A stretch of DNA of 63,514 nt from a virus. Lineage: Duplodnaviria; Caudoviricetes. Shown here in pieces: positions 693 to 63,514 of the stretch. Position 1 is the first letter of the stretch. The number at the start of each line of letters is the position of its first letter. The stretch is taken from IMG/VR virus record IMGVR_UViG_3300025086_000018, positions 1 to 63,514 of that record, one strand, 5' to 3'. Under the pieces are notes generated by a model. It was not told the DNA's origin and made no database searches. It was given only the letters and a program-made list of their open reading frames with translations. A program made the translations under genes and the position numbers.

Positions 693-801
693 TATGAATA
701 AAAATGAAGACTTTGTATTATATTATAGCCAAATGTGGTTAGATGAAGTTATAGCTAGTAATGGTTATAAAAATGAACATGAATTATATTATCACACATT
801 G

Positions 802-847
802 TGTGACAACAGCCCTAAAGATTAAATAGTAATAGGCTAGTGTCACA
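802..847. promoter_or_regulatory. Inverted-repeat protein-binding site TGTGACAnnAGCC-N20-GGCTnnTGTCACA overlapping the start of the HTH gene
   Basis: TGTGACAACAGCC (802-814) and GGCTAGTGTCACA (835-847); second copy at 56527-56573. Confidence 0.7.
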
Positions 848-1454
848 TAGAAATATGAAATATCTTAATGACAACCGCATCGTATATCGAAGGTATTCAC
901 CAGATAAACCAACAAAAGAGTATAGTTGGGGATGGTATTATATCGAAGGTACTTATGGGTACTACAGTCTATTTAATACTACAGCTAAAATAACAACTAT
1001 AAGATCTTTAAAATGGCATTTATTAACTATATGGTATTTAAACCCATCAATGGATAAGACTAAGTTTGATAAAACAGCAGAGATCATCTCTAACAAAGAC
1101 AATGGTTTTACAACGTTTAATATATCAAACCTTGTATTAAATAGTCTTATAAATGATATATACAAACAAGATCTTGAACAACCACCAAAAAATAAACTAC
1201 GTAAAATAGTTTTTAAAGATGGTACTGGTTTATCTATATCAGAAAAATTAAGTATTGTAGGTAAACTAATAGGTAGAAAAAATATGATTGATGAAGAGTC
1301 AATATATCAATGCATGATAGACTTAAACCATAATGGTAAAAAAATAACTATAGGCCTCATAGCAGGTCTATTAAACTGTTCAAGTAGAACAATACATAGA
1401 AATATGAGTCAACAACTAAAAGATGAGAAAGACTTATTGAATGAAAAAGTATAA
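840..1454 (+). CDS. HTH DNA-binding protein (possible replication initiator or regulator)
   Basis: C-terminal KITIGLIAGLLNCSSRTIHRNM is a typical helix-turn-helix; first gene of the replication cluster. Confidence 0.7.
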   Translation: MSHRNMKYLNDNRIVYRRYSPDKPTKEYSWGWYYIEGTYGYYSLFNTTAKITTIRSLKWHLLTIWYLNPSMDKTKFDKTAEIISNKDNGFTTFNISNLVLNSLINDIYKQDLEQPPKNKLRKIVFKDGTGLSISEKLSIVGKLIGRKNMIDEESIYQCMIDLNHNGKKITIGLIAGLLNCSSRTIHRNMSQQLKDEKDLLNEKV

Positions 1455-2190
1455 TATAAAAAACTATGTAAGGTATAAAGAGGATGTTAAGCTTTCTATA
1501 CAGGGTGTAAAACAAAAAAGATTTGTAGATTATACTCCAGAAGAACTTAAAATAATATTTTTACCATTAGTAGAAAACATAGGTAGAAAATTTGCTACTA
1601 GTCAAGAAGCCTCAGGTGTTATGTCTATAATGGATATAATACAAGAAGGTAGTGTACAATTGTGTAGAGCTGTAGATAAAATAGACAGAAATAAATTATT
1701 TGAATCTGAAGACGTAGAAAAAACTTTAAAATCTTTTCTAGCTAAAAGAATACGTGGTGGAATACGTAGGGAAATAGATAGAAACAGAGGTACAATGCGT
1801 ATACCTGAGCATAAATTAAATGAAATGCGAAAAGGTAAAGATGAAAAAATGGTTAGAATGTTTTTTAATTCTATATTCTTATCAATAGATGCTAAGCAAG
1901 ACGATGAAGATATGGTATATCAAATACCTGATAAGTCAGACCCATACAATGAAACTTTACTAAATGCTTATATAATGAGCTTACTAGTTAAACATCTTGA
2001 ATGGAACGAACTATTTGTTCTTGAAAAAAGCTATGGTTTAACAGGTCCAAAATGGTCTGCTAATGAAATAGCAACAGGATTAAACATAAAAGGTGTGTCA
2101 GCTTATGTAAGAGTTTCAGAGCTAAAAAAGCAGGCTGTAGAAAAATTAATAGAAAACGTGGATCACTCGCAAGTGCTTGATTACCTGTAA
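1441..2190 (+). CDS. Phage sigma-70-family RNA polymerase sigma factor
   Basis: Region 2 PLVENIGRKF...MDIIQEGSVQLCRAVDKID, GTMRIP (cf. RTIRIP), region 4 HTH SANEIATGL...RVSELKKQAVEKL. Confidence 0.85.
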   Translation: MKKYNIKNYVRYKEDVKLSIQGVKQKRFVDYTPEELKIIFLPLVENIGRKFATSQEASGVMSIMDIIQEGSVQLCRAVDKIDRNKLFESEDVEKTLKSFLAKRIRGGIRREIDRNRGTMRIPEHKLNEMRKGKDEKMVRMFFNSIFLSIDAKQDDEDMVYQIPDKSDPYNETLLNAYIMSLLVKHLEWNELFVLEKSYGLTGPKWSANEIATGLNIKGVSAYVRVSELKKQAVEKLIENVDHSQVLDYL

Positions 2191-2217
2191 GTTACCATTG
2201 TAAATTAACAAATAAAT

Positions 2218-2230
2218 ACGTGATTATAAT
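2218..2230 (+). promoter_or_regulatory. Putative middle/late-class promoter element (ACGTGATTATAAT)
   Basis: Intergenic, 3 nt before the ERF ATG; matches the GTGATnnTAT motif seen before late genes. Confidence 0.55.
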
Positions 2231-2233
2231 AGT

Positions 2234-2761
2234 ATGACAATTAACGAAAAATTATCAAAAATCCAAGTTGAGTTTAAATCAAAAAAATCAAGATTTAACT
2301 CATTCGGCAAGTACAACTTCCGTTCTGCCGAAGACATTCTCGAAGCAACAAAACCCTTTTTAAAGGAGCTAAAAGTTACAGTTACTGTAGACGAAGAGTT
2401 AGTATCATTTGACCCACCAGTTATGCAGGTTACTGCAACAGTTTCTGATGGTAAAGATGAGATAAGCTCTCAAGCTGTAGTAGGTGTAGACTTAGATCAA
2501 AAGGGTATGCAAATGCCACAGAGATATGGTGCTGCAAGTTCATATGGTAAAAAGTATGCACTTGGTAATCTGTTCTTGATTGATGACACTCAAGATTCAG
2601 ATGCAACTAATACACACGGCAAAGCAACTGCCGCTAAACAAACAATGACAAACGAATCACTAGCTAAAGCTAAAGAGTATATCGCAAAAGGCGGTAGCTT
2701 ATCCGCAATTAAAGCTAAATACGTAGTCTCAAAAAAGCATGAAGAAATGCTAACACTATGA
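2234..2761 (+). CDS. erf: ERF-family ssDNA-annealing recombinase
   Basis: YNFRSAEDILEA and GAASSYGKKYALGNLFLIDDTQDSD match the ERF signature. Confidence 0.85.
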   Translation: MTINEKLSKIQVEFKSKKSRFNSFGKYNFRSAEDILEATKPFLKELKVTVTVDEELVSFDPPVMQVTATVSDGKDEISSQAVVGVDLDQKGMQMPQRYGAASSYGKKYALGNLFLIDDTQDSDATNTHGKATAAKQTMTNESLAKAKEYIAKGGSLSAIKAKYVVSKKHEEMLTL

Positions 2762-3489
2762 AAAAACAAGAGATAATAGATAAACTTAGGATCGATGAGC
2801 ATTATTATGGTGACTTTGGTAAACAGTATTTAAGTAATTCAGATATATCTACACTACTTAAAAACCCATTATCTTTAAAAGAACCAAGTAAGACAAATGC
2901 CCACTTCTTAGTAGGAGGCTATTTTCACACTGCTATACTAGAACCTGACAAGATTAAAAACTTTAAAATTGTTGATTCAAGTAGCAGAAACACTAAGGTA
3001 TATAAAGAAATGTCTGGTGGTGAAATGTGCTTGTTACAACACGAGGTTGACAAAGTTGAAGCTCTAGTATCTACACTTATGAATAACAAGGTTTGCAGAG
3101 ACCTCATCGCAGAAGAAAAAGGCGAATATGAAGTACCTGCTATTACCGAACTCTACGGTCAAATGTGGAAAGGTAAAGCCGATATAGTTAATCATAATGA
3201 AAAATTAATAATAGATCTTAAAACCACTTCTGATCTTGACGGCTTTAAATGGAATGCTAAAAAGTATAATTACGATTCACAAGCATACATTTATAGTAAA
3301 CTGTTTGGATATGAGTTTATATTTATAGCCATTGATAAAAACAGTGGTCAAATAGGCTTATTCGACTGCTCTTCTAACTTTTACAAGTCAGGTGAAGAAA
3401 AAGTTGAAAAAGCTTCAGAAGTATATGATCTATTTTATAACACAGAAGAGTTTGACTCTTCACAATATTTTATAAACAAAACCCTATAA
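2758..3489 (+). CDS. PD-(D/E)xK exonuclease (RecE/exonuclease VIII-like)
   Basis: LSNSDI, G..FH.AILEP, KGKADI, IIDLKTT, YNYDSQAYIY motifs; adjacent to ERF. Confidence 0.85.
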   Translation: MKKQEIIDKLRIDEHYYGDFGKQYLSNSDISTLLKNPLSLKEPSKTNAHFLVGGYFHTAILEPDKIKNFKIVDSSSRNTKVYKEMSGGEMCLLQHEVDKVEALVSTLMNNKVCRDLIAEEKGEYEVPAITELYGQMWKGKADIVNHNEKLIIDLKTTSDLDGFKWNAKKYNYDSQAYIYSKLFGYEFIFIAIDKNSGQIGLFDCSSNFYKSGEEKVEKASEVYDLFYNTEEFDSSQYFINKTL

Positions 3490-3490
3490 T

Positions 3491-3805
3491 ATGGCAGGAA
3501 TAATTAAAGCAAGCATTAACTTAAATGCAATAGACAAATCAAAAATAATAGAAGGTAAGAAAGGAAAGTATTTGCCCATTACAATTACGGTAAATGATGA
3601 ACCTGACCAGTTTGGTAACCAAGGACCAGTAACAATGGATCAAACCAAAGAGGAAAGAGAAGCTAAAACACCAAAGCAATACTTAGGTAATGTTAAGGTT
3701 GTTTGGACTAATGGAACTTTTCCTGATAAAATACCTTATGAAGCTAACGGTCAAGCACCACAGCCACAAAAACAAACACAAGCTGAACCAGATCTACCAT
3801 TTTAA
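3491..3805 (+). CDS. ssb: Single-stranded DNA-binding protein
   Basis: Short beta-rich protein with flexible tail ending DLPF; between exonuclease and helicase. Confidence 0.7.
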   Translation: MAGIIKASINLNAIDKSKIIEGKKGKYLPITITVNDEPDQFGNQGPVTMDQTKEEREAKTPKQYLGNVKVVWTNGTFPDKIPYEANGQAPQPQKQTQAEPDLPF

Positions 3806-3814
3806 TTAAATTAA

Positions 3815-5527
3815 ATGCAAGTCGAAGAAATAGAGATCAATGGTTTTCAAATTGAAAACTTTAATCAGCACGGCTTAGACGTAGGAAAATCTCAGGGGAC
3901 TTGTCCCCTGTGTTCCTCTTCTAGGAAACCTGAGAATAGAAAAGCAAAATGTGCTAGCTATGATTGGGAGCGTGGTCTCGGTACTTGCCACAACTGTGAT
4001 AGCACTTTTCAATTACACACATACAAACGTAAAGGCAAAGCTGAACGTGAATATGTTATGCCTGAAATTAAAAAGGTTGATCTTGTAGTTGATAAAACGC
4101 TAGAGTGGTTTAAGACTAGAGGAATATCTAAAGATACACTAGATGAATTAAAAGTTAGTGTTGGTAAAGAATATATGCCTCAAACCGGCAAAGCCGAGAA
4201 TACTATTCAGTTTAATTATTATGTAGGTGGACAACTTACTAATGTTAAATACAGAGATGGTAGAAAAAACTTTAAGCTTTATAAAGGAGCTGAAAAAGTA
4301 TTTTATAATATAGATAATATTGTAGGTTATGATTATTGTGTTATTGTTGAAGGTGAGATGGACGTCTTAGCTTTACATGAAGCAGGAATTACAAATGCAA
4401 TATCAGTTCCAAATGGAGCTACGTTAAACTCAAACAATTTAGACTATCTAGATAATTGTATTGATTATTTTGAGGATAAGTCTAAGATCATTATTGCAGT
4501 TGATTCAGACGCACCGGGACAAGCCCTACAGACTGAATTAATACGTAGACTTGGAGCTGAGACTTGTTATCTAGTTACATTTGACGATTGCAAAGATGCT
4601 AATGAATATTTATTAAAGTACTCAGCTAAAGAGCTATTGTCACGTATAACAAATGCAAAACCTGTACCGTTAGAAAACGTTACAACATTTAGAGATATAG
4701 AAGATGAAATTACGGACTTTGTTAGAAACGGTTTTAAACGTGGGCATACTATTGGCCTTGATAATTTTGATTCAATTTTTAGTACATATACTAAGCAGTT
4801 TATTACTGTAACTGGTATACCTAGTTCAGGTAAGTCAGATTTTGTAGATCAAATGGTTGTAGGTTATAATAAAGAATATGAATGGAAAACAGCTTTTGCA
4901 TCTCCTGAGAACGCACCAACATATTTACATGCACATAAGTTAATGCGTAAAGTATGGGGTGATATGCCTGATAAAGGCGATATTGGCGGAGACAAATGGA
5001 ATCAAGTAGCTGAACACGTTAATGATAACTTTTTCTTTATTGATATGGAACGTTACACTCTTGAGTCTGTATTACGTAAAGGAGCTGAGCTTGTAAAACG
5101 TAAAGGTATTAAATGTTTAGTTATCGATCCATTTAACAAAGTTAGAGATGTTGACTGTAAAACAGAAGACGTTAATAGGTACACAATGGAGTATCTAACT
5201 AAGATTGAAACCTTTGCTAAGAAATACGATGTGCTAGTATTTATAGTAGCCCATCCCACTAAAATGTATAAAACGCAAGATGGTAAAATTGAAGAACCAA
5301 CAATGTACAACATTAAAGGTGGTGGTGAATGGTACGACGCGTCATATCATGGTTTGCTTGTACACAGAGACTATGAAGCTAAAACAACTAAAGTCAAGAT
5401 ACTTAAATGTAAGTTTCAAAACCTCGGGGAAAACGGAGCAGAAGCATTCTTTACGTGGGAACCAAGGTCAGGATGTTTTGTACCTCACGTACAACCTGAA
5501 TTAGAAGAAAAAATGCCATGGGAATAG
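3815..5527 (+). CDS. Bifunctional primase-helicase (T7 gp4/Twinkle-like)
   Basis: Zn finger CPLC...CHNC, TOPRIM IVEGEMD and DSD.PG, KDANE, Walker A GIPSSGKS, LVIDP, VAHP. Confidence 0.92.
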   Translation: MQVEEIEINGFQIENFNQHGLDVGKSQGTCPLCSSSRKPENRKAKCASYDWERGLGTCHNCDSTFQLHTYKRKGKAEREYVMPEIKKVDLVVDKTLEWFKTRGISKDTLDELKVSVGKEYMPQTGKAENTIQFNYYVGGQLTNVKYRDGRKNFKLYKGAEKVFYNIDNIVGYDYCVIVEGEMDVLALHEAGITNAISVPNGATLNSNNLDYLDNCIDYFEDKSKIIIAVDSDAPGQALQTELIRRLGAETCYLVTFDDCKDANEYLLKYSAKELLSRITNAKPVPLENVTTFRDIEDEITDFVRNGFKRGHTIGLDNFDSIFSTYTKQFITVTGIPSSGKSDFVDQMVVGYNKEYEWKTAFASPENAPTYLHAHKLMRKVWGDMPDKGDIGGDKWNQVAEHVNDNFFFIDMERYTLESVLRKGAELVKRKGIKCLVIDPFNKVRDVDCKTEDVNRYTMEYLTKIETFAKKYDVLVFIVAHPTKMYKTQDGKIEEPTMYNIKGGGEWYDASYHGLLVHRDYEAKTTKVKILKCKFQNLGENGAEAFFTWEPRSGCFVPHVQPELEEKMPWE

Positions 5528-5778
5528 GCAAAAAGATAGACTGGAAACCTCCACTATGGGATAAAGCAAACACTAAAGCATACCAATGGTGTATAAAACA
5601 TGGTATTAAAATATACTCCGTACCTTGCGGTAAAGGTTTTGTAAACAAGACCTGTTGGATAGAGGTAAATGTAAACGGAAGAAAACAATTAAGTCCAAAT
5701 ACTTATGGTCCAACAGAATTATGGCCTAAAGTTATGGAACTATATAAATTTTATTATGATAAAAACGTTCGCAAATAA
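5518..5778 (+). CDS. Hypothetical protein
   Basis: 86-aa ORF overlapping neighbours in operon fashion. Confidence 0.65.
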   Translation: MGIGKKIDWKPPLWDKANTKAYQWCIKHGIKIYSVPCGKGFVNKTCWIEVNVNGRKQLSPNTYGPTELWPKVMELYKFYYDKNVRK

Positions 5779-6472
5779 ATTTAGAAATGCTAATGAAGCT
5801 TTCCAGTATTGGTATCAATGCGTAGAGCACTATGGTCAAGACTTTGCTGGGACAAAAGCTTTGTTTAATATAGGATTTGAAATGGAGAACCCAGATCAAA
5901 TGACTATAAATGAATCATGGCGTAACTGGAAAGAAGATTATGCAGAAGCTGAATGGAGATGGTATCTATCAGGTGATAGAAACATAGAGACATTAGGAGA
6001 GATATACGGTAAAGTACCTGCTATATGGAAACGTATGGCAGACGATCATGGTGATGTTAACTCTAATTATGGTTGGCAGTGGGAAAGAGGTTACCAGTTA
6101 GATAAAGTTATAGAAATGCTAAGACGTGATCCTAACACTAGACAAGCTACAATATCAATTTACGATGGTAAAGAAAGAGGCAGATATAAGTATGATACTC
6201 CATGCACGTACGCAATACAATTCACAGTTGTTAATAATCATCTGAATATGTGTGTTACGATGCGATCTAATGATCTCTGGTACGGTTTCTGTAATGATCA
6301 ATATTGTTTTGCACAATTACAATTATTAGTTGCAGAGGAGACAGATTATGAATTAGGATCTTATTTTCATTTTGCACATAATTTACATTTATATAATAAA
6401 GATCTGGGTAAGTTCTTGAGTTCTAAAGAGAAAGGCCCAGCACAATCAAGAGCTGATGAATATGGATGGTAA
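5756..6472 (+). CDS. Thymidylate-synthase-fold enzyme, dCMP hydroxymethylase/methylase-like (T4 gp42-like); track ORF starts 5705, likely start 5756
   Basis: VNSNYGW, PCT (catalytic Cys), MRSNDLWYGFCND with Asp at the position where ThyA has Asn, HNLHLY. Confidence 0.8.
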   Translation: MIKTFANKFRNANEAFQYWYQCVEHYGQDFAGTKALFNIGFEMENPDQMTINESWRNWKEDYAEAEWRWYLSGDRNIETLGEIYGKVPAIWKRMADDHGDVNSNYGWQWERGYQLDKVIEMLRRDPNTRQATISIYDGKERGRYKYDTPCTYAIQFTVVNNHLNMCVTMRSNDLWYGFCNDQYCFAQLQLLVAEETDYELGSYFHFAHNLHLYNKDLGKFLSSKEKGPAQSRADEYGW

Positions 6473-7307
6473 TATAACATACTTTTTATACCACATACCG
6501 GGTAAAAAGATAGGTGTAACACGTGATCTTAATAAAAGAGTTACACAACAACAGGGGTATACCCTAGACGAATACGAAGTTCTAGATCAAAGCAATGACA
6601 TCGATTATATATCGAGCCGCGAGTTAGAACTTCAAAAGTCTTACGGCTATAAAGTCGACCTTAAACCTTATAAACAATTATTTAAAATGAAAGTAAACGC
6701 AACCGAACAAACCTCAACATTTCCTGTACCTTTAAACAAACTAAAAGGTAGATTGATGGACTCAATAGGATTAACATGGGAAACAATCCATGGTAAATTT
6801 GAAGTAACTAAAGAAACAATAGACTGGATAATGCAAAATGCATCAACATCCATGTTTAATAAGAAAAGATCTTATATATACAATAAAGCTTTCTACGAAG
6901 CATTCTTAAATGAAGCTAAAAATGAAGCTCAATTGTTTTATGATCAATTAAAAGATAGACCAGCTAAACAAAACGGTCATGCATGGGTCGATGATGATAG
7001 GTTTCAAAAAATTAGAGACTGGGCAGGTTCAAGAGGTTTATACACTAAAGGTGATACTAAAACTCAGTTCTGCAAACTAATGGAAGAAGCTGGTGAGCTT
7101 GGTAGAGCAGTGTTAAAAGATGATAAAGATGAATTTGTAGATGCTATAGGTGATATGGTTGTTGTCTTAACTAACATGGCTCATTTAGGCGGAGTAACTA
7201 TAGAACATTGTATTGATTCAGCATATGATGTTATAAAAAAACGCACCGGTAAAATGGTTAACGGAACATTTGTAAAAGATGACAACACTAGGAATAATAA
7301 TAGCTAA
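6456..7307 (+). CDS. MazG-like all-alpha NTP pyrophosphatase with N-terminal GIY-YIG-like segment
   Basis: C-terminal KLMEEAGEL...DAIGD; N-terminal YFLYH...KIGVTRDLNKR. Confidence 0.75.
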   Translation: MNMDGNITYFLYHIPGKKIGVTRDLNKRVTQQQGYTLDEYEVLDQSNDIDYISSRELELQKSYGYKVDLKPYKQLFKMKVNATEQTSTFPVPLNKLKGRLMDSIGLTWETIHGKFEVTKETIDWIMQNASTSMFNKKRSYIYNKAFYEAFLNEAKNEAQLFYDQLKDRPAKQNGHAWVDDDRFQKIRDWAGSRGLYTKGDTKTQFCKLMEEAGELGRAVLKDDKDEFVDAIGDMVVVLTNMAHLGGVTIEHCIDSAYDVIKKRTGKMVNGTFVKDDNTRNNNS

Positions 7308-7345
7308 TTTAGCTGCAACATTAATATTAATAATACTATATTACT

Positions 7346-7633
7346 ATGGTAAAGAAAGAGATTAAATTTAGAGACCCTGTTGTTGAAACAGTTGTAGATA
7401 AGTTCGTAAGCAGATCAGATGTAGGTTTCAGCAAGTACGGTCAAACACTTGACAAAGAACGTAGAACAGGCGTAAAAGATCTAGCAGGATATCTTAATGA
7501 TATACAAGAGGAATTAATGGATGCTATATTATATATACAAGCAGCTAGAGATGAACTAGCTGAAGCTAAAGACAAAGTCTACGGCGAGAGTATTAACGGT
7601 CTACCATATTATGTCTCGGATATTGCGTCGTAA
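7346..7633 (+). CDS. Small all-alpha NTP-PPase-like / nucleotide-modification-associated protein
   Basis: RS.VG..KYG followed by QEELMDAILY. Confidence 0.6.
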   Translation: MVKKEIKFRDPVVETVVDKFVSRSDVGFSKYGQTLDKERRTGVKDLAGYLNDIQEELMDAILYIQAARDELAEAKDKVYGESINGLPYYVSDIAS

Positions 7634-8063
7634 AAAGCGTGGTCCTGTTAGAGCCAAGAAAAAAATTGTAGATGGTATAGAGTTTAAGTCAGGATTAGAG
7701 GCTTACATGTATACGGCTTTAAAAGATGCTGATATACAAGCAGAATATGAGGGGACAACATTTGAATTAGTCCCCTCATTTGTCTCGCCTAATAAAAGCT
7801 ATGAGCGAACAGGAAACGGAAAAGGAGAATTTAAAGATAGGGGTAATAAAAAAATTCTTAATCTTAAATACACACCTGATTTCATTGGTAATAACTTTGT
7901 CATTGAATGTAAGGGTAGAGCCAATGAATCTTTTCCTCTTAGGTGGAAGCTGTTTAAAAAATACATGGCGAAAAATTATCCTACTACAACATTGTATAAA
8001 CCACAAAATCAAAAAGAATGCGACGAAACCGTGAGCTTAATTCTTGGGAAAAGAAAGATCTAG
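7611..8063 (+). CDS. T7 endonuclease I-like junction resolvase
   Basis: FKSGLE, YTPDF, IECKG motifs. Confidence 0.8.
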   Translation: MSRILRRKKRGPVRAKKKIVDGIEFKSGLEAYMYTALKDADIQAEYEGTTFELVPSFVSPNKSYERTGNGKGEFKDRGNKKILNLKYTPDFIGNNFVIECKGRANESFPLRWKLFKKYMAKNYPTTTLYKPQNQKECDETVSLILGKRKI

Positions 8064-8185
8064 CTAGACGTAAATACTCTGAAAGACAATTACAAAAGTT
8101 TATTGAATGGAGTATAACAAGCAGAGGTTATTTAAAATATAAAGACTTAATAGAGTTTAGTAAAAAATATGATATACATAATTGA
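8018..8185 (+). CDS. Small hypothetical protein (55 aa, not in ORF track)
   Basis: ATG 8018 to TGA 8185, MRRNRELNSWEKKDLARRKYSERQ...; fills the gap between two genes. Confidence 0.5.
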   Translation: MRRNRELNSWEKKDLARRKYSERQLQKFIEWSITSRGYLKYKDLIEFSKKYDIHN

Positions 8186-8732
8186 TAACTTCTTACGAAA
8201 TAATATTTTAAAAGCACTAAATAAATACTTAGTTAATTTTAAAGAAGTAGATACGGGCGATAAGAAATTTTGGATAATGAATCCACCAGAAGATTTTACT
8301 GCTTGGATGTGTGATAAAATATCTGTAATAGAAAATAAAAGAATAGAAAATATATTATCTTTCTTTAGAATAGCTACTGATGAATTAGATACAGACTGGA
8401 GAATACATTGTGACTCTATAATAAATGGACAACTACCTTCAAGAGCTATAGTTCTATACATGTCTGAACCTGGTTTAGATGAGTTAAATGGTACTGCTTT
8501 GTGGGAACATAAAGAATTAGGTTGTAGTCTACCAGTTGATCAGTTGACTTCAAAAAAATATGATGACTTAATTTTAAATGAGTCTAATAAATTAGACAAC
8601 TGGAAACTTAATACTGTAATTGGTTATAAAAAAAATAGACTAGTGTCTTATCCATCTAATTATTTTCACAGTAAATATCCTAATAAAAGTTGGGAAAAAG
8701 GAAGAAAAGTATTTGTAATGTTTTATAAATGA
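8169..8732 (+). CDS. 2OG-Fe(II) oxygenase-like protein
   Basis: IIDNF start, HxD (IHCD), GTALW, NRLVSYPSNYFHS distal His, basic residue near C-terminus. Confidence 0.75.
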   Translation: MIYIIDNFLRNNILKALNKYLVNFKEVDTGDKKFWIMNPPEDFTAWMCDKISVIENKRIENILSFFRIATDELDTDWRIHCDSIINGQLPSRAIVLYMSEPGLDELNGTALWEHKELGCSLPVDQLTSKKYDDLILNESNKLDNWKLNTVIGYKKNRLVSYPSNYFHSKYPNKSWEKGRKVFVMFYK

Positions 8733-8947
8733 AAGAACAAAGTTTAATTGAAATGAAAAATAAAATCCAGTCCTTGACTAATGTTATGGAACACATGATA
8801 CAAGAGCTAGATTATTTAAGAACCGTATCTTTTGGTACGTTAGAAACGATAAAGCAAATGTCAGAATATGATAATGCTTTAGGTAAAGTAAAAGAAAAAG
8901 TTAAAGAAGATAAAGAACATGGAGCTATCGAATCAGATACTAAGTGA
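8729..8947 (+). CDS. Hypothetical coiled-coil protein
   Basis: 72-aa ORF with overlapping start/stop. Confidence 0.6.
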   Translation: MKEQSLIEMKNKIQSLTNVMEHMIQELDYLRTVSFGTLETIKQMSEYDNALGKVKEKVKEDKEHGAIESDTK

Positions 8948-10781
8948 TATTACCGTTTACATGAAGTACGCTAAGTACTTACCAAAATTAAACCGAAGAG
9001 AAACATGGCATGAACTTGTTACTAGAAATAAAGACATGCATATTAAAAAGTATCCTGATTTAAAAGACCAGATCGAAGAAACATATAAATTAGTTTATGA
9101 AAAGAAAGTTTTACCTTCTATGCGATCGCTACAATTTGGTGGTAAACCTATTGAGATTAGTCCTAATAGGGTATATAATTGCGCATATCTACCTATCGAT
9201 AGTGTTGATTCGTTTAATGAGATAATGTTTTTATTATTAGGTGGTACTGGTGTAGGTTACTCAGTACAGAAACATCACGTTGACAAACTACCTATGATTA
9301 GTAAACCTTATGAAAAAAGAACTAGAAGATTTTTAATAGGTGACTCAATTGAAGGTTGGGCTGATGCTATTAAAGTATTAATGAAATCATATCTTGGTGA
9401 CAAAAGAAGTTCACGTATAGAGTTTGACTACTCTGATATACGCCCTAAGGGTGCAATGTTAGTAACGTCTGGTGGTAAAGCACCTGGACCTCAACCACTG
9501 AAAGAATGTATAGTAAAAATAACAGGAGTCTTAGATTCAAAGGAGGAAACAGATACGCTCTCCACTATAGAAACACACGATATAGTTTGCCATATTGCAG
9601 ACGCTGTCTTAGCTGGTGGGATTCGTCGAGCAGCTCTTATAAGCTTGTTCTCAGCGGACGACGACGAGATGATCTCAGCGAAGTCTGGAAATTGGTGGGA
9701 AACAAACCCACAAAGAGGTAGAGCTAATAACTCTGCTGTACTTATGAGACATAAAATAACTAAAGAGTTTTTTATGGATCTGTGGAAACGTGTAGAACTA
9801 TCAGGAGCAGGTGAACCTGGAATATATTTTAACAACGACAAAGACTGGGGTACAAACCCTTGTTGTGAAATAGCTTTACGACCATATCAGTTTTGTAACC
9901 TATGTGAAGTAAATGCTAGTGATATTGAATCACAAGATGAGTTAAACAACAGAGTGAAAGCAGCTGCGTTTATAGGAACGTTACAAGCTGGATATACGGA
10001 CTTTCACTACTTAAGAGACGTATGGAAAGAAACAACAGAAAAAGAAGCATTAATAGGAGTGTCGATGACGGGTATAGGATCTGGCAGGGTGTTAGGATAC
10101 GACATGCAGAAAGCCGCTCAATTAGTAAAACGAGAAAACGCAAGAGTCGCCAAAGCGATTGGGATTAATAATGCTGCAAGATGCACAACCGTGAAGCCTG
10201 CAGGGACAACATCTCTGGCGCTAGGAACCTCATCTGGTATTCACGCATGGCACAATGATTATTATCTGCGTAGGATCAGGGTTGGTAAAAACGAAAGTAT
10301 ATACAAATACTTAGTTGAGAACCATCCATTATTGGTTGAAGATGAGTTTTTCAGACCTCATGACACAGCTGTAATTAGTATACCACAGAAAGCTCCGGCT
10401 GGATCTATACTTAGAACTGAATCACCTTTTCAATTACTTGAACGTATAAAGAAGGTTGCTACAGAGTGGGTTGCACCTGGTCATAGAAAAGGATCTAACA
10501 CTCACAATGTTTCTGCTACGGTCAGTTTAAAAGCTGAAGAGTGGGAAGACGCAGGTGAATGGATGTGGGATAACAGAAAACACTATAATGGTTTATCTGT
10601 ATTACCATTTGATGGTGGAACATATACTCAAGCCCCTTTCGAGGACATTGATGAAGGAACCTACATAAATAGGTTACAACATTTAAAAGATATAAATTTA
10701 GAACATGTTATCGAAACTGAAGACAACACTGATCTTAGTGGTGAGCTTGCTTGCGCTGGTGGTGCTTGTGAAATTACTTAA
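8919..10781 (+). CDS. nrdJ: Class II (adenosylcobalamin-dependent) ribonucleotide reductase
   Basis: PSMRSLQ, YNCAY, GGTGVG, TNPCCEI, FCNL, TTVKPAGT, C-terminal CAGGAC; no beta-subunit gene nearby. Confidence 0.9.
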   Translation: MELSNQILSDITVYMKYAKYLPKLNRRETWHELVTRNKDMHIKKYPDLKDQIEETYKLVYEKKVLPSMRSLQFGGKPIEISPNRVYNCAYLPIDSVDSFNEIMFLLLGGTGVGYSVQKHHVDKLPMISKPYEKRTRRFLIGDSIEGWADAIKVLMKSYLGDKRSSRIEFDYSDIRPKGAMLVTSGGKAPGPQPLKECIVKITGVLDSKEETDTLSTIETHDIVCHIADAVLAGGIRRAALISLFSADDDEMISAKSGNWWETNPQRGRANNSAVLMRHKITKEFFMDLWKRVELSGAGEPGIYFNNDKDWGTNPCCEIALRPYQFCNLCEVNASDIESQDELNNRVKAAAFIGTLQAGYTDFHYLRDVWKETTEKEALIGVSMTGIGSGRVLGYDMQKAAQLVKRENARVAKAIGINNAARCTTVKPAGTTSLALGTSSGIHAWHNDYYLRRIRVGKNESIYKYLVENHPLLVEDEFFRPHDTAVISIPQKAPAGSILRTESPFQLLERIKKVATEWVAPGHRKGSNTHNVSATVSLKAEEWEDAGEWMWDNRKHYNGLSVLPFDGGTYTQAPFEDIDEGTYINRLQHLKDINLEHVIETEDNTDLSGELACAGGACEIT

Positions 10782-10798
10782 TTTTTAAAACAAATATT

Positions 10799-10837
10799 AT
10801 GTGTCCATATTGTAATGGCTACTGTGGTAGCTGCTAA
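10799..10837 (+). CDS. Candidate 12-aa Cys-rich micropeptide MCPYCNGYCGSC
   Basis: ATG after an A-rich leader, CxxC-x3-CxxC, stop immediately before the terminator. Confidence 0.45.
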   Translation: MCPYCNGYCGSC

Positions 10838-10840
10838 ATA

Positions 10841-10870
10841 AAAAAGGGAGGTCTTGCGGCCTCCCTTTTT
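10841..10870. terminator. Bidirectional intrinsic terminator at the convergence of replication and late blocks
   Basis: AAAAAGGGAGGTC-TTGC-GGCCTCCCTTTTT. Confidence 0.85.
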
Positions 10871-10913
10871 GGTTACAGGAACTTTGGGTATGGTGCCCAG
10901 TTTGTTTGTTCCT

Positions 10914-13900
10914 TTATCTTTTTCTTACTGTAACTTTTCTTTTCTTTCTATTCCCAGACTTTTGCCTTGCGGTAAGTTTGGGTTTTTTCTTTTTAGTAGT
11001 TTTAGTAGACGAGGTTTTTTCTTCTAACGACCAACTAGGCCAACCTAATAACATTGCTACTGATTGCCACCACTCTGTTTCTTCGTTCATAGCAGAGTTT
11101 ATATTATCAAACTTTTGAAGTACTCTATCTAAAGGTAAATTAGTAGTAGCTGATATAACTTTAGCTGCAGCATCATAAGCAGGGTTATCTAAACTAAACC
11201 CTTTATCAAACATTTCTTGTCTACGTTTCTTACTATCAAACAGCCACAACGCTTGTCTCATACGAGATATCTTAGAACTTATTGGTGGAGAAAACTGTAG
11301 TAACTTCCAAACAGAATCTACATACTCAGGCCTTGATCTACCTGATCTTTCATATATATCGTATATAAAATTCTTAATAACAGATACTGCTGTTCCTCCC
11401 ATACCTAGTCCACGTAAAGTAGAATCTAACATACCATTAGCTGTTTTTAAATACTTCTTATTCTTTTCTTCTTCATCATCTCCATCACCAAATCCTAGAG
11501 CAAATACAGCTTGTTGTAAAGCATTGAATATAATATTTTGAATTACACCGTAGTATATTATTTTACTTATATTAGTTTTTCTATCACCTCTGCCATTGAC
11601 TAAATCTTGAAAAGCTCTTTTCTGTATACGAGCATACTGCATAGGTGTATTAGCAAACATAAGTATTAAACGACCAGCGTCACTAGCTTGTTGTTGAGAT
11701 ATTTTATCAGGTCTACTAGACTGCTGGTTTTCCTCAGCAATCTCTCTGAATTCCTGCATAGCCTGCGCTTCAGCATCTTTGAGCTTCATTCCATCTTCGA
11801 CTAAACTATTTATTCTATTTCTATAAAACGTAGCACCACCCGAAGCTATAGCAAAACTATCTGCATATTGAGTAGGTAAATAACCTTTTTGTAATATGTA
11901 ATTTAAAACTGCTTTAGCTTTATTCTGTGACGTTTTAGCAGCATCAGCTATTTCACTTTCAGATATATTAATTCTTAAACCATTACGTCTATCCATTAAG
12001 AAGTCTGAGTTCATTAGCTTTTTGAAATCACTCCAGTACTGAGGTTGATTAGCAAAAGCTTTACCTGCTTGTATAGGATTATTAAAACTCCAGTTCATAA
12101 AGTTTATACTAGATATAGTTTGAAGCACAGCTGATCTCATGTTAAAGAACATTATAGCTCCATTACTAGCATTGATGTAATCGAGTATTTTATTACTTAA
12201 CCTATTACCACTAGACAATCTGTTCTTACCAGACTTCATTCTACTTAAAACATTTTCTAATGCTTCTCTATACTTAGCTCCATATATAGCTTCTAGCTTA
12301 TTTAAATTATCTTGATTATATATTTGATCAACATTATTCTGCCATTGCTCTAAGAACTTATCTCTTTTAGTTGTATTAAGTAGATCTAGTAAATCTGTAG
12401 TTATAGTACCTACTAACCAGCTTTGCCCTGGCTTACCATATCCATCACCTTTTGTTATAGTTAATATTTGATCTGCAAAAACTTTTAATTGAGGATCATT
12501 TTCTACTATATCAGATAATTCTTTTGAATCTGTATCAGATAGTCCAGGTACTTTTTGTCCTGTCTTATTCCATAAGTAAACTCTAACTGCTTGTTCATTA
12601 GTAAAACCAGAGTCTGTCTTTTTTCTTAAATTAGCAGGTACATTTAATTTTTTCTTTAAAGCATTAAAGTCTTTCATTAAATTTAACCTAGCAGTAGAAA
12701 AATTATCCATCGCTCTAGCATATGGATCTAATACATGTTGCTTGTACCAAGCCATCTGTGCATCACCTAAAGCTCCTTTAGCTAAGGTCTTATATATTAA
12801 TCCTTGAAAATCTTCAGCTGAATAAGGTATCCAGAATTTACCTTTACCTTTGTTAGCGCCTCTTACTTGAGCTTTAGCTTTAGAATATTTCTTTTGTTTA
12901 CCTATACCTGTAGTGTTTTCTAACAGCTTATTAAAATCACTATTTAAGTTCTTTGATTCTAACACGTGTGCTTGCTGTACTTTAGACTTAACATCTATGA
13001 CATCAAGAGCATCTTGAACTGCTTTAACATTTTGATAAGCATCATCTGCAAAGTAGAAATCATTAAACCCTTCAGCTGCTTTATCTATTATCCAATTAGC
13101 TTTTGCTTCACCTGATGAATTACCTAATCCTACTATGTTTTCTTTTTTAAATTCTAAACCTTCTGATTTTAAAAATTCATATATAGCTTCTTGAGCTTGC
13201 GGTGATCTAGCTGTAAGAACATATAAGTCTTCATTACCTCTAGAGTTTTTAATAGTTTCAGCTACTTTAAACAATGGTCCACGTTTACCTTCTTTTACTA
13301 TATCAAAGTCAGAAAAATCCATTACAGCTCCTTCTTGAACTAGTCTAGCTCCGTCACTAGCAAATTGTTCTGCTGTTAATTCTCCTTGAGATCCATCTTT
13401 TTTAGTGTAAAATACTTTACTATTTGTTTGAGCAAGTGTATCATCAAAATCAAATACTCTTATTTTCTTATTAGTTTTCTTAGTCTTTCTAGCGTTTGCT
13501 AAAGCTTCATCTATAGTCTTTGCTTTGCTTAGTATATCTTCAGGACTCATGTTGTCATCAACATTAAGAACTTTAGATTCATTAAGCATTGAAACGTTTT
13601 CATTAGCAGACTTTTGTATGTCACTAGCTAGTGGTAAGAAAGCGTCTAACTCTGCCTTAGCATCTTCTATTGACTTACCATTTTCAACTTCAGCAACTAA
13701 ATTGTTTTGGAAAGCAACTACAGCTGTATTGTTTTTAAGTCTACCAGGCACAGGTAATCCATAATCTTCCATCATAGATTTACCACTAATTAGATTTGTT
13801 ATAGTATTACCGTTAATACCAGCTTTAGATAATCTTATTATTGGATCATTAAATATACTATAACCAGTAGGTATAGTAGCATCTAACTTAGCCATATCTA

Positions 13901-16900
13901 ATAATTCATCTGAAGCTTTTGATAGCTGAGTCTGTGAATAGTTTTTTCTAATAAAAGGAAATATTTCGTCTACATTTTTATTAACTATAGCTCCTATAAG
14001 CGTAGCACCTATTACAGATGCTGGTGGATTATGTTCTTCTCTATATTTCTCTCCTGTTCTTTGTTTCTTAGACTTACCATACTCCATGACATCAGAAACA
14101 TTATCAAACCTAGCAGCAATTTTTATTAGTCCAGCAGTTGCTTGATATCCTTGAGCAATAAGCAAAGCTGCTAGAGCTGGATTCATTCCCTCTTTCACAG
14201 CGTTACCTAATTGTTTAGAAACATCTTCAAGAATATCCATGTTCATATCACTTTGTGGTTTATTCTTGTTAAACTCTTTTCGAGTAATCTTTCCTTTGAC
14301 CCTTATTCTTTTTGGTTTTTGTTTGTCGTCTCTTGCCTCTGCAGCTTTTAGCGCTGCTATATACGCAGGATCAGTAACACCATAATATAATCTACCTCTT
14401 TGTGCAACTAAATTAGTTAACGGTAAACCTTCCTTATCAACCGGTGGCGAAAAAGTTTTATTACCATTTTTATCTATACCTTTTTCTACACCTTTAGCAA
14501 ACTTCCCATTAGTTAACTTATACCAAACATCTCCTTTAACTGCTTTAATATTATTATCTGCAAGATACATATCTAGCATAGGTACCTTACCAACTCTCAT
14601 TCTAATAGCACCAGATGAAGCTGGCATAGCTGCTTTAAATACATTAGAACTTAAACCATATTTTACTATAGCTTCTAGTATTGCTATTTGTTTACCTATT
14701 CTATTCTCATCATTAACAGTTATCTTAGGTAATCCTAGTATCTTAGCAACATCATTAATAGATCTAGCATTAGAAAGTTTATCATATAATTTTCTTTGCT
14801 CTGGTGTTACTTTATTTAAAGACTCAGAGAACATTACTTGAGCTTTACCTTCAGCCAAAGCTTGTGGTATATCTCTACCTCGTTTTTCTAATTCAGCTCT
14901 TACTTCTTGATTAGAAAGCATACGCTCTGTTTGAGCTACTAAAGCTTTTATTCTAGCACTAGTATTTCTATCACTTATATTAGGTGTACCAGCTGGAGTA
15001 ATACCAAATATTTCTTTAAACTGAGATTGAGTTATGTCATTACGTTTTTCTTGAACAGCAAGTCCAGCTTTACTACCTGTAACGGACATTGCTACTCTTT
15101 TCGTTTTCTTATATAACTTATCTAATAAAACCTTTTGAACACCAGTTGAAGTACCACTACGGGTTGCACCCTCAGGCATCATCGTCATTAAAGCTTCTAC
15201 ATTTTTGTTGATAAAGTTTTGAGCATTAGCTACATCTCCTTTAGTTAAGTTACCTGTTTTAGGTTTTATACCAAACAACTCTTGAACTTTATCAATAGCT
15301 ATATTTTTTAAGGTTTTAAAATCTAAATCTGCTATAGGTAAATTATCTATTTCACTTTTAATTTCTTGTACAGCTTGATCTAATGTTTCTTTTTGATCCT
15401 CATTAGTAACTAACCTGTTTGCCAATTTAATTCCTCTTTGAGATTGATCTATTTTTTTGTTATCTTCTTTAACTATATCAGCGGTTTCTTCTGCGGCTAT
15501 ATCTTTAGCTTCTGTTATATCATCTGTAAACTCTTGGTCAAATGTATCTGTAGCTAACTTATTAGCCCTTAAATTTAGTCTATTACTTAAGAATTTATCT
15601 AAGTCTTGTTTGCTAGGATCAAACTCTTGTTGAATTAACGTACTAGCCATAGTAGTTAAATCATTTTTAAAGTCATCTCTTGTAACACCTTTTCTTAAAT
15701 CTTCTGGTACTTTGTCATATAATCTTCTAGTTGTAGACTCTATCATACCTCCTATGTCTTGACCAAACTTTGATCTAGTAATATCAGTAACAAAATTACC
15801 GTCTTTATCTTTAGCTAGATTCTCGTTTAAAAATCTTGTTCTACCAGATGGTTTAGACATGTCAAAGTCTTTAGACATTTCAGCTAAGCTAGAAGATTCT
15901 TTTACTTCTTCTTTCTTTTCGTCGTCATCTATTCTAGCTATGTCATATTTCTTAGCAGACTTTTGAAAACTATTTAAATAACCAAATACATCTTTACCCG
16001 TCTGCATTGGAAACAACCAAGCTTGATTAGATGGGTTAAATTTATTAACTAAGGTAGATAAAGTATTTTTAATACCATACATATTGTTTAAGCCAGAAGC
16101 TGTTAATACTCCTATGTTTACAAAATCCCCATATAAATTAAGTAATTCTTCAACATTAACTCCTTTATCTGTAGTGTATAATTCTTTTCTAGCATTAAAG
16201 TTATCGTACTGTTCTTGAGTTATTTTGTTTAACGCTAATTTTTCTTTCATTAAACCATCAAGCTCTGTTATAGCTGTATTAGCTTGTCCAACTACAACGT
16301 TATCTTTAACAATACCAGCTTTTCTATTTTGAATATGTAACAACTCATGCATTGGTGCTACTGCAGCTATCTCAGATTCAGTTATTAAATCTGTGTTAGC
16401 CATACCTCGTTTTATGTTTTCTTGAAATATAAATATATCGTTACCAATATTAGCCGCATTAGAACCCTTATCATAAGCAGCTACAACCGCTTTTGCATCA
16501 GCATCACTTAACCCTTTTCTTTTTAAACTTTCTATATCGGGTTTGTTTTCTCCTTCATATTTAGTAAAGCCACCATCATTCATAGCTTGATTCATTTCTA
16601 CAACATCAGTGTAAAAATCATTTAACCCCATATTATGTTCTAGTTGTGCTGGATCGGAATTGTCTTTAGCAGCTTCTTGTCTGTTTCTAGCTTCTCTTGA
16701 AAGTAAATCATTACGTCTAGCATCTACTTTTTTATACTCAGCAACTAACTTGTCTCTATTTTTTTTAGTTGCCTTAGATATACCTTGAGCAGCATTAGAT
16801 CTTATATCTTTTAATAGCTTTCTTTTTTTAGCATTAAGATTAAATAAAGATTTAACCTCAGTGTCGCTCATTCTAGCCAGCTTCTGAGTCTTCATAACGT

Positions 16901-35643: not shown

Positions 35644-35668
35644 GATATAATATAATATAAATTAATAA

Positions 35669-38086: not shown

Positions 38087-38089
38087 TTA

Positions 38090-40312: not shown

Positions 40313-40584
40313 TTGCTACGCCCTTCTGCAAAACCTTTAAATACTCTTTCTTCTTTAGTATCTTTAGGTTTTTCAATTAATCTTAGTTCTTCTTCTTCTA
40401 TTCTAGTTAATATTTCAAAAGCATCAAATATAGCTAGCTTTTTAGTAGCGGCAGCATTTTTAAGTCTGTCAGCGCTTACGTCGTCGTCTGAGTCTACGAT
40501 CTTTTCTTTAGCCACCTTAATAAGTTCCTCAACCGCCTTTTGCCCAGCTTGGATTATTTTCTTCTTCGTTTCCTTTGTGTTCAT
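40309..40584 (-). CDS. Putative terminase small subunit
   Basis: 91-aa helical protein overlapping the terL start. Confidence 0.55.
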   Translation of the reverse strand: MNTKETKKKIIQAGQKAVEELIKVAKEKIVDSDDDVSADRLKNAAATKKLAIFDAFEILTRIEEEELRLIEKPKDTKEERVFKGFAEGRSK

Positions 40585-62552: not shown

Positions 62553-62855
62553 ATGGATAAAAAACAAATGAACGAATTAGCTGATCTTATTATAAGCAAG
62601 CTAGAAGTTAAACAAACAGAGTGGGATGAAGAGTTTCACAGTTCCGTGCAAGATCTTTATGGCAAAGAATCTAGCAAAGAAGCTTTTGTTATGACTGAAG
62701 AAGAAGCTTTGATAGGTGAACTAGCAAGACTACAAACACTATGCATGATATTCGAAAATAAAGAAGAATATGAAAAAGCAGCTATAGTGTTAAGCAAATT
62801 AAATGCAATTAAAACTAAACTAAGAAAAGGAGATTATGACGGAGACGACGATTAA
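62553..62855 (+). CDS. Hypothetical protein with a UvrB/C-like C-terminal motif
   Basis: ENKEEYEKAAIV..KL. Confidence 0.6.
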   Translation: MDKKQMNELADLIISKLEVKQTEWDEEFHSSVQDLYGKESSKEAFVMTEEEALIGELARLQTLCMIFENKEEYEKAAIVLSKLNAIKTKLRKGDYDGDDD

Positions 62856-63514
62856 ACCTATGCTAGCGCATAAATATAATCCTGACAAAGCTGATTATCC
62901 AGCATACATACAGCCAAAACTAGATGGCGTAAGATGTGTATTTACAAAAGACGGTGCATACAGCAGAACAGGTAAAGAATTTAAAAATGTAGATCACATC
63001 AAAAAAGATTTAGAAGTAGTATTCAATAGATACCCAAATCTTATACTAGATGGTGAACTATACAATCATGGATTAAAAGATGACTTTGAAAAGATCATTT
63101 CATTAGTCAGAAAAACTAAACCAACACAAGATCACAGAGACGAAGCAGCTCAACTAGTACAATACCATATATATGATGTAGCTAGTTTTCCACACGCTAC
63201 ATATAACTGGCGTATGAATTTTGTGAATACGCTAAACGACTCAGCTGTAGTTAAAACTAGTACTTGTCTATGTCTTATTAAGACTAAAGTTGTACTAGAT
63301 TATGACGAAGCAGTTAGACAACACAAAAAATACCTAAAACTAGGTTACGAAGGCAGTATATACAGATCTATTGATGGTAAATACAAAAACACTAGGTCAT
63401 GGGACTTAATGAAGTTCAAAGACTTTGAAGATTCAGAAGCCACAATTGTAGGCTATGAAACAGGTAAAGGTAAGAGGCAAGGCACGATTGGTAAGTTCAT
63501 CATGCAGGATGACG
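62836..63514 (+). CDS. ATP-dependent DNA ligase, N-terminal part (not in ORF track; runs off the end and continues at position 1)
   Basis: KPMLA, motif I QPKLDGVR, YSRTG, motif III LDGELY, YHIYD, motif IV GYEGSI, RS.DLMKFK. Confidence 0.92.
   Translation, partial: MTETTIKPMLAHKYNPDKADYPAYIQPKLDGVRCVFTKDGAYSRTGKEFKNVDHIKKDLEVVFNRYPNLILDGELYNHGLKDDFEKIISLVRKTKPTQDHRDEAAQLVQYHIYDVASFPHATYNWRMNFVNTLNDSAVVKTSTCLCLIKTKVVLDYDEAVRQHKKYLKLGYEGSIYRSIDGKYKNTRSWDLMKFKDFEDSEATIVGYETGKGKRQGTIGKFIMQDD
63400..63514 (+). repeat. Terminal direct repeat / circular overlap, right copy
   Basis: Matches 1-115 with 5 mismatches. Confidence 0.95.

Follow-up and report, generated by a model that had tools for sequence, protein, structure and literature searches.

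Do the genes between positions 5756 and 8732 of this phage DNA encode a pathway that replaces the cytosine of its genome, and if so by which base? The window, the whole stretch that we analysed, comes from an uncultured marine phage and is a 63,514-base IMG/VR contig (IMGVR_UViG_3300025086_000018; CheckV completeness 98%) with a G+C content of ~33% and a podovirus-like genome of 63.5 kb. An earlier reading made from the letters only (hereafter, the sequence-only reading) had described this region as a cytosine-modification cassette of four components: a thymidylate synthase homologue specific for deoxycytidine monophosphate (dCMP), two nucleoside triphosphate (NTP) pyrophosphatases, and a 2-oxoglutarate- and Fe(II)-dependent (2OG-Fe(II)) oxygenase. 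Two of these four, the second pyrophosphatase and the oxygenase, do not belong to the cassette. The other two are compatible with a pathway in which cytosine would be replaced before replication, probably by 5-hydroxymethylcytosine (5hmC), with the help of host kinases and the host polymerase, an account that we hold with reasonable, though far from complete, confidence. The virion DNA would then probably contain a modified cytosine and resist host restriction enzymes. The two genes concerned are:

5756..6472, + strand: thymidylate-synthase-fold enzyme of 238 amino acids, predicted dCMP 5-hydroxymethylase (PF00303, PDB 1b49, and active-site residues)
6456..7307, + strand: three-part protein of 283 amino acids with a MazG NTP pyrophosphatase domain (Pfam, AlphaFold model, and fold match)

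The open reading frame (ORF) at 5756-6472 matches the Pfam family PF00303 (E = 2.8e-26, 92.7 bits, cut-off 24.3) and the T4 dCMP hydroxymethylase of PDB 1b49 (HMMER, E = 2e-16). A longer ORF opens at 5705; since relatives align only from about residues 18-26 of it, 5756 is the likely start. The two motifs on which the sequence-only reading was built, MRSNDLWYGFCND (nucleotides 6260-6298) and VNSNYGW (nucleotides 6056-6076), are both present in this + strand ORF, the pattern RS.D...G...[ND] being found a single time when the window is translated in all six frames, and HMMER pairs them with MRSNDVVFGFRND and INSNYGW of the T4 enzyme. The window segments DTPCT and GFCND likewise align to T4 DFMCT and GFRND.

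We aligned the window protein with Escherichia coli ThyA, the synthase of Xanthomonas phage Xp12, T4 gp42, and RB69 gp48, and use the E. coli ThyA numbering throughout. At positions 143, 146, 147, 168, 169, and 177 the window protein carries D, C, T, N, D, and D, exactly as T4 gp42 does; the same positions read L, C, H, C, D, N in ThyA, N, C, P, S, D, D in Xp12, and E, C, T, Q, N, D in RB69 gp48. Asp143 sits three residues before the catalytic Cys146, as in T4, the equivalents of Glu58, Trp80, Tyr94, His207, and Tyr209 are retained, and the C-terminal segment of ~40 residues that forms a lid in ThyA and Xp12 is missing. The synthase motifs, including Asp177 and Asp169, are kept in 80/80 related loci (here and below, the best 80 among the IMG/VR stretches with a gene for a relative of the enzyme, of which there are at least 520). 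For the meaning of positions 143, 169, and 177 we follow PMC13326640 and PMC8670742: a switch from Asn177 to Asp makes dCMP the substrate, Asp or Glu in place of Leu143 accompanies hydroxymethyl rather than methyl products, and Asn in place of Asp169 is the mark of 5-hydroxy-dCMP synthases (PMC13326640). Judged by Asp177, the synthase homologue is of the cytosine type, in agreement with the dCMP specificity originally proposed for it. The diagnostic residues also favour 5-hydroxymethyl-dCMP as the predicted product, both over 5-methyl-dCMP (Asp143, no ThyA-type lid) and over 5-hydroxy-dCMP (Asp169 kept). A 5-hydroxy-dCMP synthase of the RB69 gp48 type was rejected as a candidate, position 169 being Asp and not Asn in the window and in all 80 relatives; the window and T4 both read RSND where RB69 gp48 reads RSQN.

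Could the enzyme nevertheless be a divergent but ordinary thymidylate synthase that makes thymidine monophosphate (dTMP) for the phage? We give this almost no credence. The Pfam and PHROG families that it matches are named thymidylate synthase, and the genome has neither ThyX nor another ThyA, the relative MW202828.1 carrying ThyX instead; against this, Asp replaces Asn177 in 80/80 relatives, the score against the NCBIfam thymidylate synthase equivalogs is 78 bits where the cut-offs are 108-427, and the C-terminal lid is absent. We therefore rejected ThyA as an identity for this protein. The dCMP-based route to dTMP that the sequence-only reading had offered as an alternative also fails, as no deaminase was found among the ORFs and the residue pattern is not that of a methylase.

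A dCMP methylase comparable to that of Xp12, which would give DNA with 5-methylcytosine (5mC) instead of 5hmC, has to be considered more seriously. The two phages would share a pre-replicative modification of dCMP at C5 by an Asp177 synthase homologue (predicted in the window), their genome sizes are close (63.8 kb in Xp12), and, according to Liu and Santi 1992 (cited in PMC8670742), a thymidylate synthase can become a dCMP methylase through Asp177 alone. However, position 143 of the window protein is Asp, as hydroxymethylases have, and it is Xp12 only that possesses the ThyA-like GLPYD motif, the C-terminal lid, a dihydrofolate reductase, and, beside the synthase, a dCMP deaminase. A tree of 12 rows places ThyA and Xp12 on one side of a split (support 98/99) and the window clade, T4, and RB69 on the other. 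On these grounds and on the restriction-site evidence given below, we regard the 5mC explanation as quite unlikely, although it retains one argument from that evidence.

The second gene is tightly linked to the first. A homologue of the MazG protein is present in 78/80 related loci and, in the loci examined, immediately follows the synthase homologue; a stop codon separates the two genes in the translations of three loci (L060, L079, and L082). Its product comprises a GIY-YIG-like part (residues 9-62), a middle domain (residues 72-166), and a MazG domain (residues 180-262), and this full-length fusion is found in 73/76 complete homologous ORFs. Residues 180-262 are a genuine MazG domain, as the sequence-only reading had claimed: they exceed the Pfam cut-offs for PF01503 (28.1 bits, cut-off 21.3) and PF03819 (24.8 bits, cut-off 22), and the motifs LMEEAGEL (nucleotides 7077-7100) and DAIGD (nucleotides 7140-7154) include EEAGE and DAIGD segments that are invariant in 31/31 sequences. 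In the AlphaFold model of the whole protein (predicted local distance difference test, pLDDT, 79.9) this domain superposes on 1vmg (Z 9.9, root-mean-square deviation 2.9 over 81 residues), on the MazG-like enzyme of phage S-2L (7ody, Z 9.0), and on the mouse enzyme DCTPP1 (2a3q, Z 9.0), specific for deoxycytidine triphosphate (dCTP), the match to DCTPP1 being no better than those to enzymes of other specificity.

The part of this protein that precedes the MazG domain has no clear counterpart. Residues 9-62 adopt a beta-beta-alpha-beta-alpha topology in the model and, among 31 relatives, match the Pfam families T5orf172 (20/31) and MUG113 (17/31), always below threshold (best E 0.0014 and 0.0048, respectively). 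Both families belong to the GIY-YIG clan. Comparison by hhalign with T4 SegF and SegA gave a probability of 0.1%. Residues 72-166 form a conserved alpha/beta domain for which no match was obtained, the whole-model fold searches returning lists filled by the MazG domain. In the cultured-phage collection, 0/955 matching records cover 80% of the 283 amino acids; used as a query, the N-terminal module scored at least 8,000 clusters. We compared the cassette genomes, that is, the window plus eight IMG/VR records of 57-68 kb, each with a confirmed PF00303 match, with six relatives that have no PF00303 match. The N-terminal module is present only together with the synthase homologue (8/8 related cassette genomes, 0/6 cassette-free relatives). 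It could be a 5-hydroxymethyl-dCMP kinase devoid of a P-loop or, alternatively and by analogy with T4 endonuclease II, a nuclease acting on unmodified cytosine-containing DNA and feeding dCMP to the hydroxymethylase. That it supplies the missing step of a T4-like pathway, in a minimal system of about two genes without phage kinase or polymerase, seems to us a doubtful proposal.

How might these two proteins operate together? A third gene downstream may be relevant to the supply of nucleotides:

8919..10781, + strand: class II (B12-dependent) ribonucleotide reductase, best match of the ribonucleoside-triphosphate reductase (RTPR) type (TIGR02505, phrog_367)

The reductase matches TIGR02505 with E = 2.3e-75 and 254 bits, below the cut-off of 340, and phrog_367 with E = 2e-128, and it occurs in 47/80 related loci. 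It is a possible direct source of dCTP and, were dCTP indeed its direct product, dCMP would most naturally come from a dCTP pyrophosphatase. In the route that we propose, the RTPR-like reductase and the host would supply dCTP, which the MazG domain would hydrolyse to dCMP and pyrophosphate, lowering canonical dCTP and feeding the synthase homologue, in a role comparable to that of T4 gp56. The synthase homologue would then transfer the methylene of methylenetetrahydrofolate to C5 of dCMP, attack by water yielding 5-hydroxymethyl-dCMP, which the host CMP/dCMP kinase and subsequently the nucleoside diphosphate kinase would convert into the triphosphate. Finally, the phage primase-helicase would recruit the replicative polymerase of the host, which would incorporate the modified triphosphate. 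The replicative polymerase of E. coli does incorporate 5-hydroxymethyl-dCTP in vivo, according to bioRxiv 10.1101/2024.12.05.627091, so that reliance on a host polymerase is plausible. The initial suggestion of 5hmC or 5mC DNA made through host enzymes can be kept for cytosine modification as such, to which Asp177 and the MazG linkage point, and refined in favour of 5hmC by Asp143, the lost lid, and Asp169.

The logic of this putative pathway is that of T4, cut down to a hydroxymethylase and a pyrophosphatase. T4 makes 5hmC with the dCMP hydroxymethylase gp42 (EC 2.1.2.8; PDB 1b49, 6a9a), the dCTPase gp56, the deoxynucleoside monophosphate (dNMP) kinase gp1, and glucosyltransferases. Besides the six shared active-site positions, the window phage resembles T4 in encoding an all-alpha NTP pyrophosphatase alongside, in the proposed gp56 role, and in having its own ATP-dependent ligase and ribonucleotide reductase. 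It differs in that its pyrophosphatase is fused to the GIY-YIG-like domain and to domain 72-166, and in its 63.5-kb podovirus-like genome and probable Flavobacteriia hosts, T4 being a myovirus of 169 kb.

Three pieces of a complete T4-like system, a phage dNMP kinase, a phage DNA polymerase, and a DNA glucosyltransferase, were not found. Profile searches of the ORFs with Pfam, PHROG, and NCBIfam, in which many late-strand ORFs matched no family, thus bear out the sequence-only reading as to the absence of recognisable DNA polymerase, kinase, and glycosyltransferase genes, and the same scans revealed no carbamoyltransferase, aminotransferase, deaminase, or DNA methyltransferase. Neither PF00476 nor PF00136 matches anything in this 98%-complete record, an NCBIfam search of 28 ORFs for a hidden polymerase or kinase brought nothing new, and the 639-amino-acid ORF at 49539-51458 gave no usable Atlas match. 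Any modified dCTP would therefore need host kinases and the host polymerase. These absences also suit a different explanation, in which the enzymes reshape nucleotide pools and leave the DNA unchanged, draining or diverting dCTP and dCMP, for example to slow host replication or counter a host defence, with no kinase accepting the product. Efficient incorporation in E. coli required a phage kinase in the experiments of PMC13326640, and MazG domains are frequent among phages whose DNA is ordinary. Nonetheless, we consider this explanation unlikely: in the PMC8670742 study, Asp177 synthase homologues lie mostly on metavirome contigs that resist cytosine-sensitive digestion, and unmodified DNA would not readily account for the restriction sites of the cassette genomes.

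This last argument comes from palindrome counts, compared with maximal-order Markov expectations, in the nine cassette genomes and the six cassette-free relatives. Relatives of the terminase, portal, and further structural genes of the window are found in cultured and uncultured phages, namely the uncultured MW202828.1 (terminase identity 62.8%), the Flavobacterium elemo phages (44%), Maribacter phage Panino (42%), the Cellulophaga phages phi13:2 and phi38:1 (38%), and Tenacibaculum phage Gundel_1 (32%); the host of the window phage is likely a member of the Flavobacteriia. Among the 12 cytosine-containing 4-bp palindromes, none falls below an observed/expected ratio (O/E) of 0.3 in any of the nine cassette genomes, where the minimum is 0.65-0.77. 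By contrast, one to five of them are purged in 4/6 cassette-free relatives (observed versus expected: GATC 0 versus 202 and 263; CATG 0 versus 149; CCGG 0 versus 26, 78, and 12; GGCC 0 versus 27; CGCG 0 versus 35). The difference, 0/9 versus 4/6, corresponds to 15/1365 = 0.011 in a Fisher test calculated by hand, the nine cassette genomes being one clade. A strong restriction-avoidance signature was observed in MW202828.1, elemoF (NC_055853.1), Panino (PP540027.1), and phi38:1 (NC_021796.1).

Which modification would produce such a pattern? In the digestion data of PMC7653180, the 5hmC DNA of T4gt is not cut by NlaIII (CATG), MspI (CCGG), HaeIII (GGCC), or Sau3AI (GATC) and is completely cut by EcoRV (GATATC) and NdeI (CATATG). 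In the cassette genomes, GATATC drops below O/E 0.2 in 6/9 and CATATG in 3/9, a residual depletion that fits 5hmC-like protection. GATC bears on the 5mC alternative, since MboI and DpnII cut 5mC DNA in the same source: it is not avoided in the cassette genomes (O/E 0.89-1.19) and is depleted in 6/6 cassette-free relatives. The continued avoidance of GATATC and CATATG in several members is also what one would expect of plain 5hmC and speaks against a further possibility, namely that 5hmC is an intermediate to which the product of a gene without family match adds a further group once the DNA has been replicated, giving a hypermodified cytosine. Most known 5hmC phages do attach a group to the hydroxyl (PMC13326640 and PMC8670742), the window has many ORFs without family match, and the N-terminal module of the MazG protein travels only with the synthase homologue; but no scan detected a glycosyltransferase, carbamoyltransferase, kinase, or aminotransferase family, and such hypermodification appears improbable to us. 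Overall, the site pattern favours some cytosine modification without settling which, and the support that it lends is circumstantial.

Several observations weigh against replacement of cytosine by 5hmC. The synthase homologue has an overall identity of 25% to ThyA and likewise 25% to T4 gp42, so that the hydroxymethylase call rests on active-site residues and not on phylogeny; in the tree, the order of the window clade, the Bacteroides phage homologue, T4, and RB69 is not settled and the branches are long. In the window protein, Gln takes the place of one phosphate-binding Arg in the RR pair of ThyA. Comparable MazG domains are present in ~955 records of diverse phages, and the window domain shows no detectable homology to T4 gp56 (hhalign 1.1%). 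The kinase step is the weak point: no dNMP kinase was found in the genome, its only convincing Walker A motif being that of the primase-helicase, and in the E. coli work reported in PMC13326640 synthase homologues without a phage kinase gave only traces of modified base. As to the restriction sites, a single clade amounts to a single evolutionary comparison, which could reflect host differences, and 2/6 cassette-free relatives show no 4-mer purging either. Moreover, GGTACC is under-represented in 9/9 cassette genomes, with O/E 0.11-0.44, and the window has 2 GGATCC sites where 8.4 are expected, which does not fit 5hmC because KpnI-HF (GGTACC) and BamHI-HF (GGATCC) fail to cut T4gt DNA; KpnI completely cuts the 5mC DNA of Xp12 (both from the PMC7653180 data), which is the one restriction-site argument for 5mC. 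Taking both sides together, we consider the prediction of a pre-replicative cytosine modification, made from sequence, to be credible and testable, with 5hmC as the favoured base.

The remaining genes of the 5756..8732 region have a looser connection, or none, to this predicted pathway:

7346..7633, + strand: conserved, acidic, all-helical protein of 95 amino acids (model only, no family match)
7611..8063, + strand: DUF1064/endonuclease-I-like Holliday junction resolvase (PF06356, 40.2 bits, cut-off 24.7; phrog_190, E = 3.8e-11)
8169..8732, + strand: DUF6445-type protein with a 2OG-Fe(II) oxygenase-like HxD...H...R motif (motif)

The 95-amino-acid protein had been presented as a second all-alpha pyrophosphatase. 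The all-alpha part of that description agrees with its model (helices 11-31 and 46-80; pLDDT 70), and the enzymatic part found no support: Pfam provided no family for the window protein and none common to more than 4 of 31 relatives, the best hits of the PDB profile and Foldseek searches had E values of 1.4 and 3.8, respectively, and hhalign against the MazG protein gave a probability of 3.9%. The gene is present in 72/80 related loci and in 8/8 cassette genomes, and also in 2/6 cassette-free relatives. The resolvase-like gene, which lies within the region but was absent from the sequence-only reading, occurs in 71/80 related loci and in 3/6 cassette-free relatives; it is a replication and recombination gene and not a base-modification gene.

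The putative oxygenase has the motif attributed to it, contained in RIHCDS (nucleotides 8400-8417), YFHSKYP (nucleotides 8661-8681), and GRKVF (nucleotides 8700-8714), with H80, D82, H167, and R179 invariant in 32/32 aligned relatives. It belongs to a large viral DUF6445 family, although its one Pfam match (PF20043) reaches 21.5 bits, below the cut-off of 24. No PDB match was found by sequence or profile, the Atlas search gave DUF6445 clusters only and no structure, and a literature search on DUF6445 returned no papers. A role in the cassette did not withstand comparison, for the gene is present in 1/80 related loci, 0/8 related cassette genomes, and 3/6 cassette-free relatives, including the elemo, Panino, and Gundel_1 phages, all without a PF00303 match. 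Because its distribution does not track the cassette, we regard it as an accessory gene outside the conserved cassette. The present analysis thereby adds three new elements: this accessory status, the restriction-site comparison, and the absence of support for a second pyrophosphatase.

A phyletic profile did not single out pathway partners, because the early module as a whole is not the same in the cassette lineage and in the relatives. In PMC8670742, the MetaGPA study associated an Asp177 synthase homologue, a changed position 147, PRA-PH, and DNA ligase with cytosine-modified contigs, and the window has all of these (PF00303 with Asp177, a non-His residue at 147, PF01503, and DNA ligase). 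That line of work (also bioRxiv 10.1101/2024.12.05.627091) centred on contigs that in addition encode a carbamoyltransferase or a dCMP deaminase, neither of which was found in the window, and the common neighbours included DNA_pol_A, again unlike the window. The ligase is encoded at the two ends of the window:

62836..63513, + strand: ATP-dependent DNA ligase, N-terminal part (open-ended ORF)
10-291: ATP-dependent DNA ligase, C-terminal part (phrog_114, E = 6.2e-22)

As both window ends lie inside this one gene, the contig represents a permuted, nearly whole phage genome. The two halves are out of frame when the ends are joined directly, so that a few bases are missing or the ends overlap. Both parts were found in 8/8 cassette genomes and 0/6 cassette-free relatives, a co-occurrence with the cassette that echoes the ligase association with modified contigs in PMC8670742.

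Among cultured phages, the closest homologues of the enzyme are those of the Bacteroides fragilis phages BF503P2 and BF486P2 and their relatives (44-45% identity over 88-90% of the query), no record of the cultured-phage collection matching at 60% identity or more. They share DTPCT and RSNDL.YGFCND with the window protein, their hosts are likewise Bacteroidota, and the gene is automatically annotated as deoxycytidylate 5-hydroxymethyltransferase. Their gene context differs from that of the window, with a second synthase homologue, a dUTPase, and no MazG fusion listed. In BF503P2, two different Asp177 synthase homologues (34973-35779 and 37853-38533) are ~2 kb apart with the dUTPase between them, the second being very divergent.

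The sequence-only reading considered such a system unusual for a 63-kb podovirus-like genome. This was overstated, given that relatives of the enzyme are encoded on at least 520 IMG/VR stretches and that links between Asp177 synthase homologues and PRA-PH/MazG domains have been published (PMC8670742 and bioRxiv 10.1101/2024.12.05.627091). The kind of system is known already, and the marine phage lineage that carries it is new and very abundant; a literature search for marine or flavobacterial 5hmC phages found no paper on this lineage. If the prediction is correct, a very abundant group of marine phages, with probable hosts among the Flavobacteriia, replaces the cytosine in its DNA, and full base replacement would be possible without a polymerase or a nucleotide kinase of the phage's own. 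Modified DNA would alter the recovery of these phages by restriction-based, bisulfite, enzymatic, and nanopore methods and would bear on how restriction-modification and modification-dependent defences shape marine phage-host dynamics. The short enzyme could also serve biotechnology as a 5-hydroxymethyl-dCMP synthase.

Other genes of the window deserve mention. On the - strand, 10914-19880 is a giant ORF of 2988 amino acids without Pfam family, whose sole and weak match is a polynucleotide kinase/phosphatase PHROG (residues 2129-2308, E = 1.2e-5), with a DxDxT-like HAD motif in the matched region. Homologues with 38-63% identity are present in 8/8 related genomes, and MW202828.1 has a still larger gene at the same place (741-12320). 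A tail protein (22724-24601, - strand) contains the C-terminal domain of the crAss muzzle protein (PF25729, E = 4.3e-8), which links this group of flavobacterial podophages to the crAss-like tail architecture. A sigma-70-like protein (1441-2190, + strand; Sigma70_r2, TIGR02937 E = 3.6e-8), found in 8/8 cassette genomes and 0/6 cassette-free relatives, is preceded by a 204-amino-acid protein with a C-terminal helix-turn-helix (840-1454). By eye, this 204-amino-acid protein is helix-turn-helix-like and a 118-amino-acid protein zinc-ribbon-like, and both are conserved across the cassette lineage. The - strand also encodes a GroEL-like chaperonin (52729-54276; phrog_5725, E = 9e-132) and two GroES-like proteins (52472-52732 and 40529-41122), GroEL being common to the elemo phages, Panino, phi38:1, and MW202828.1.

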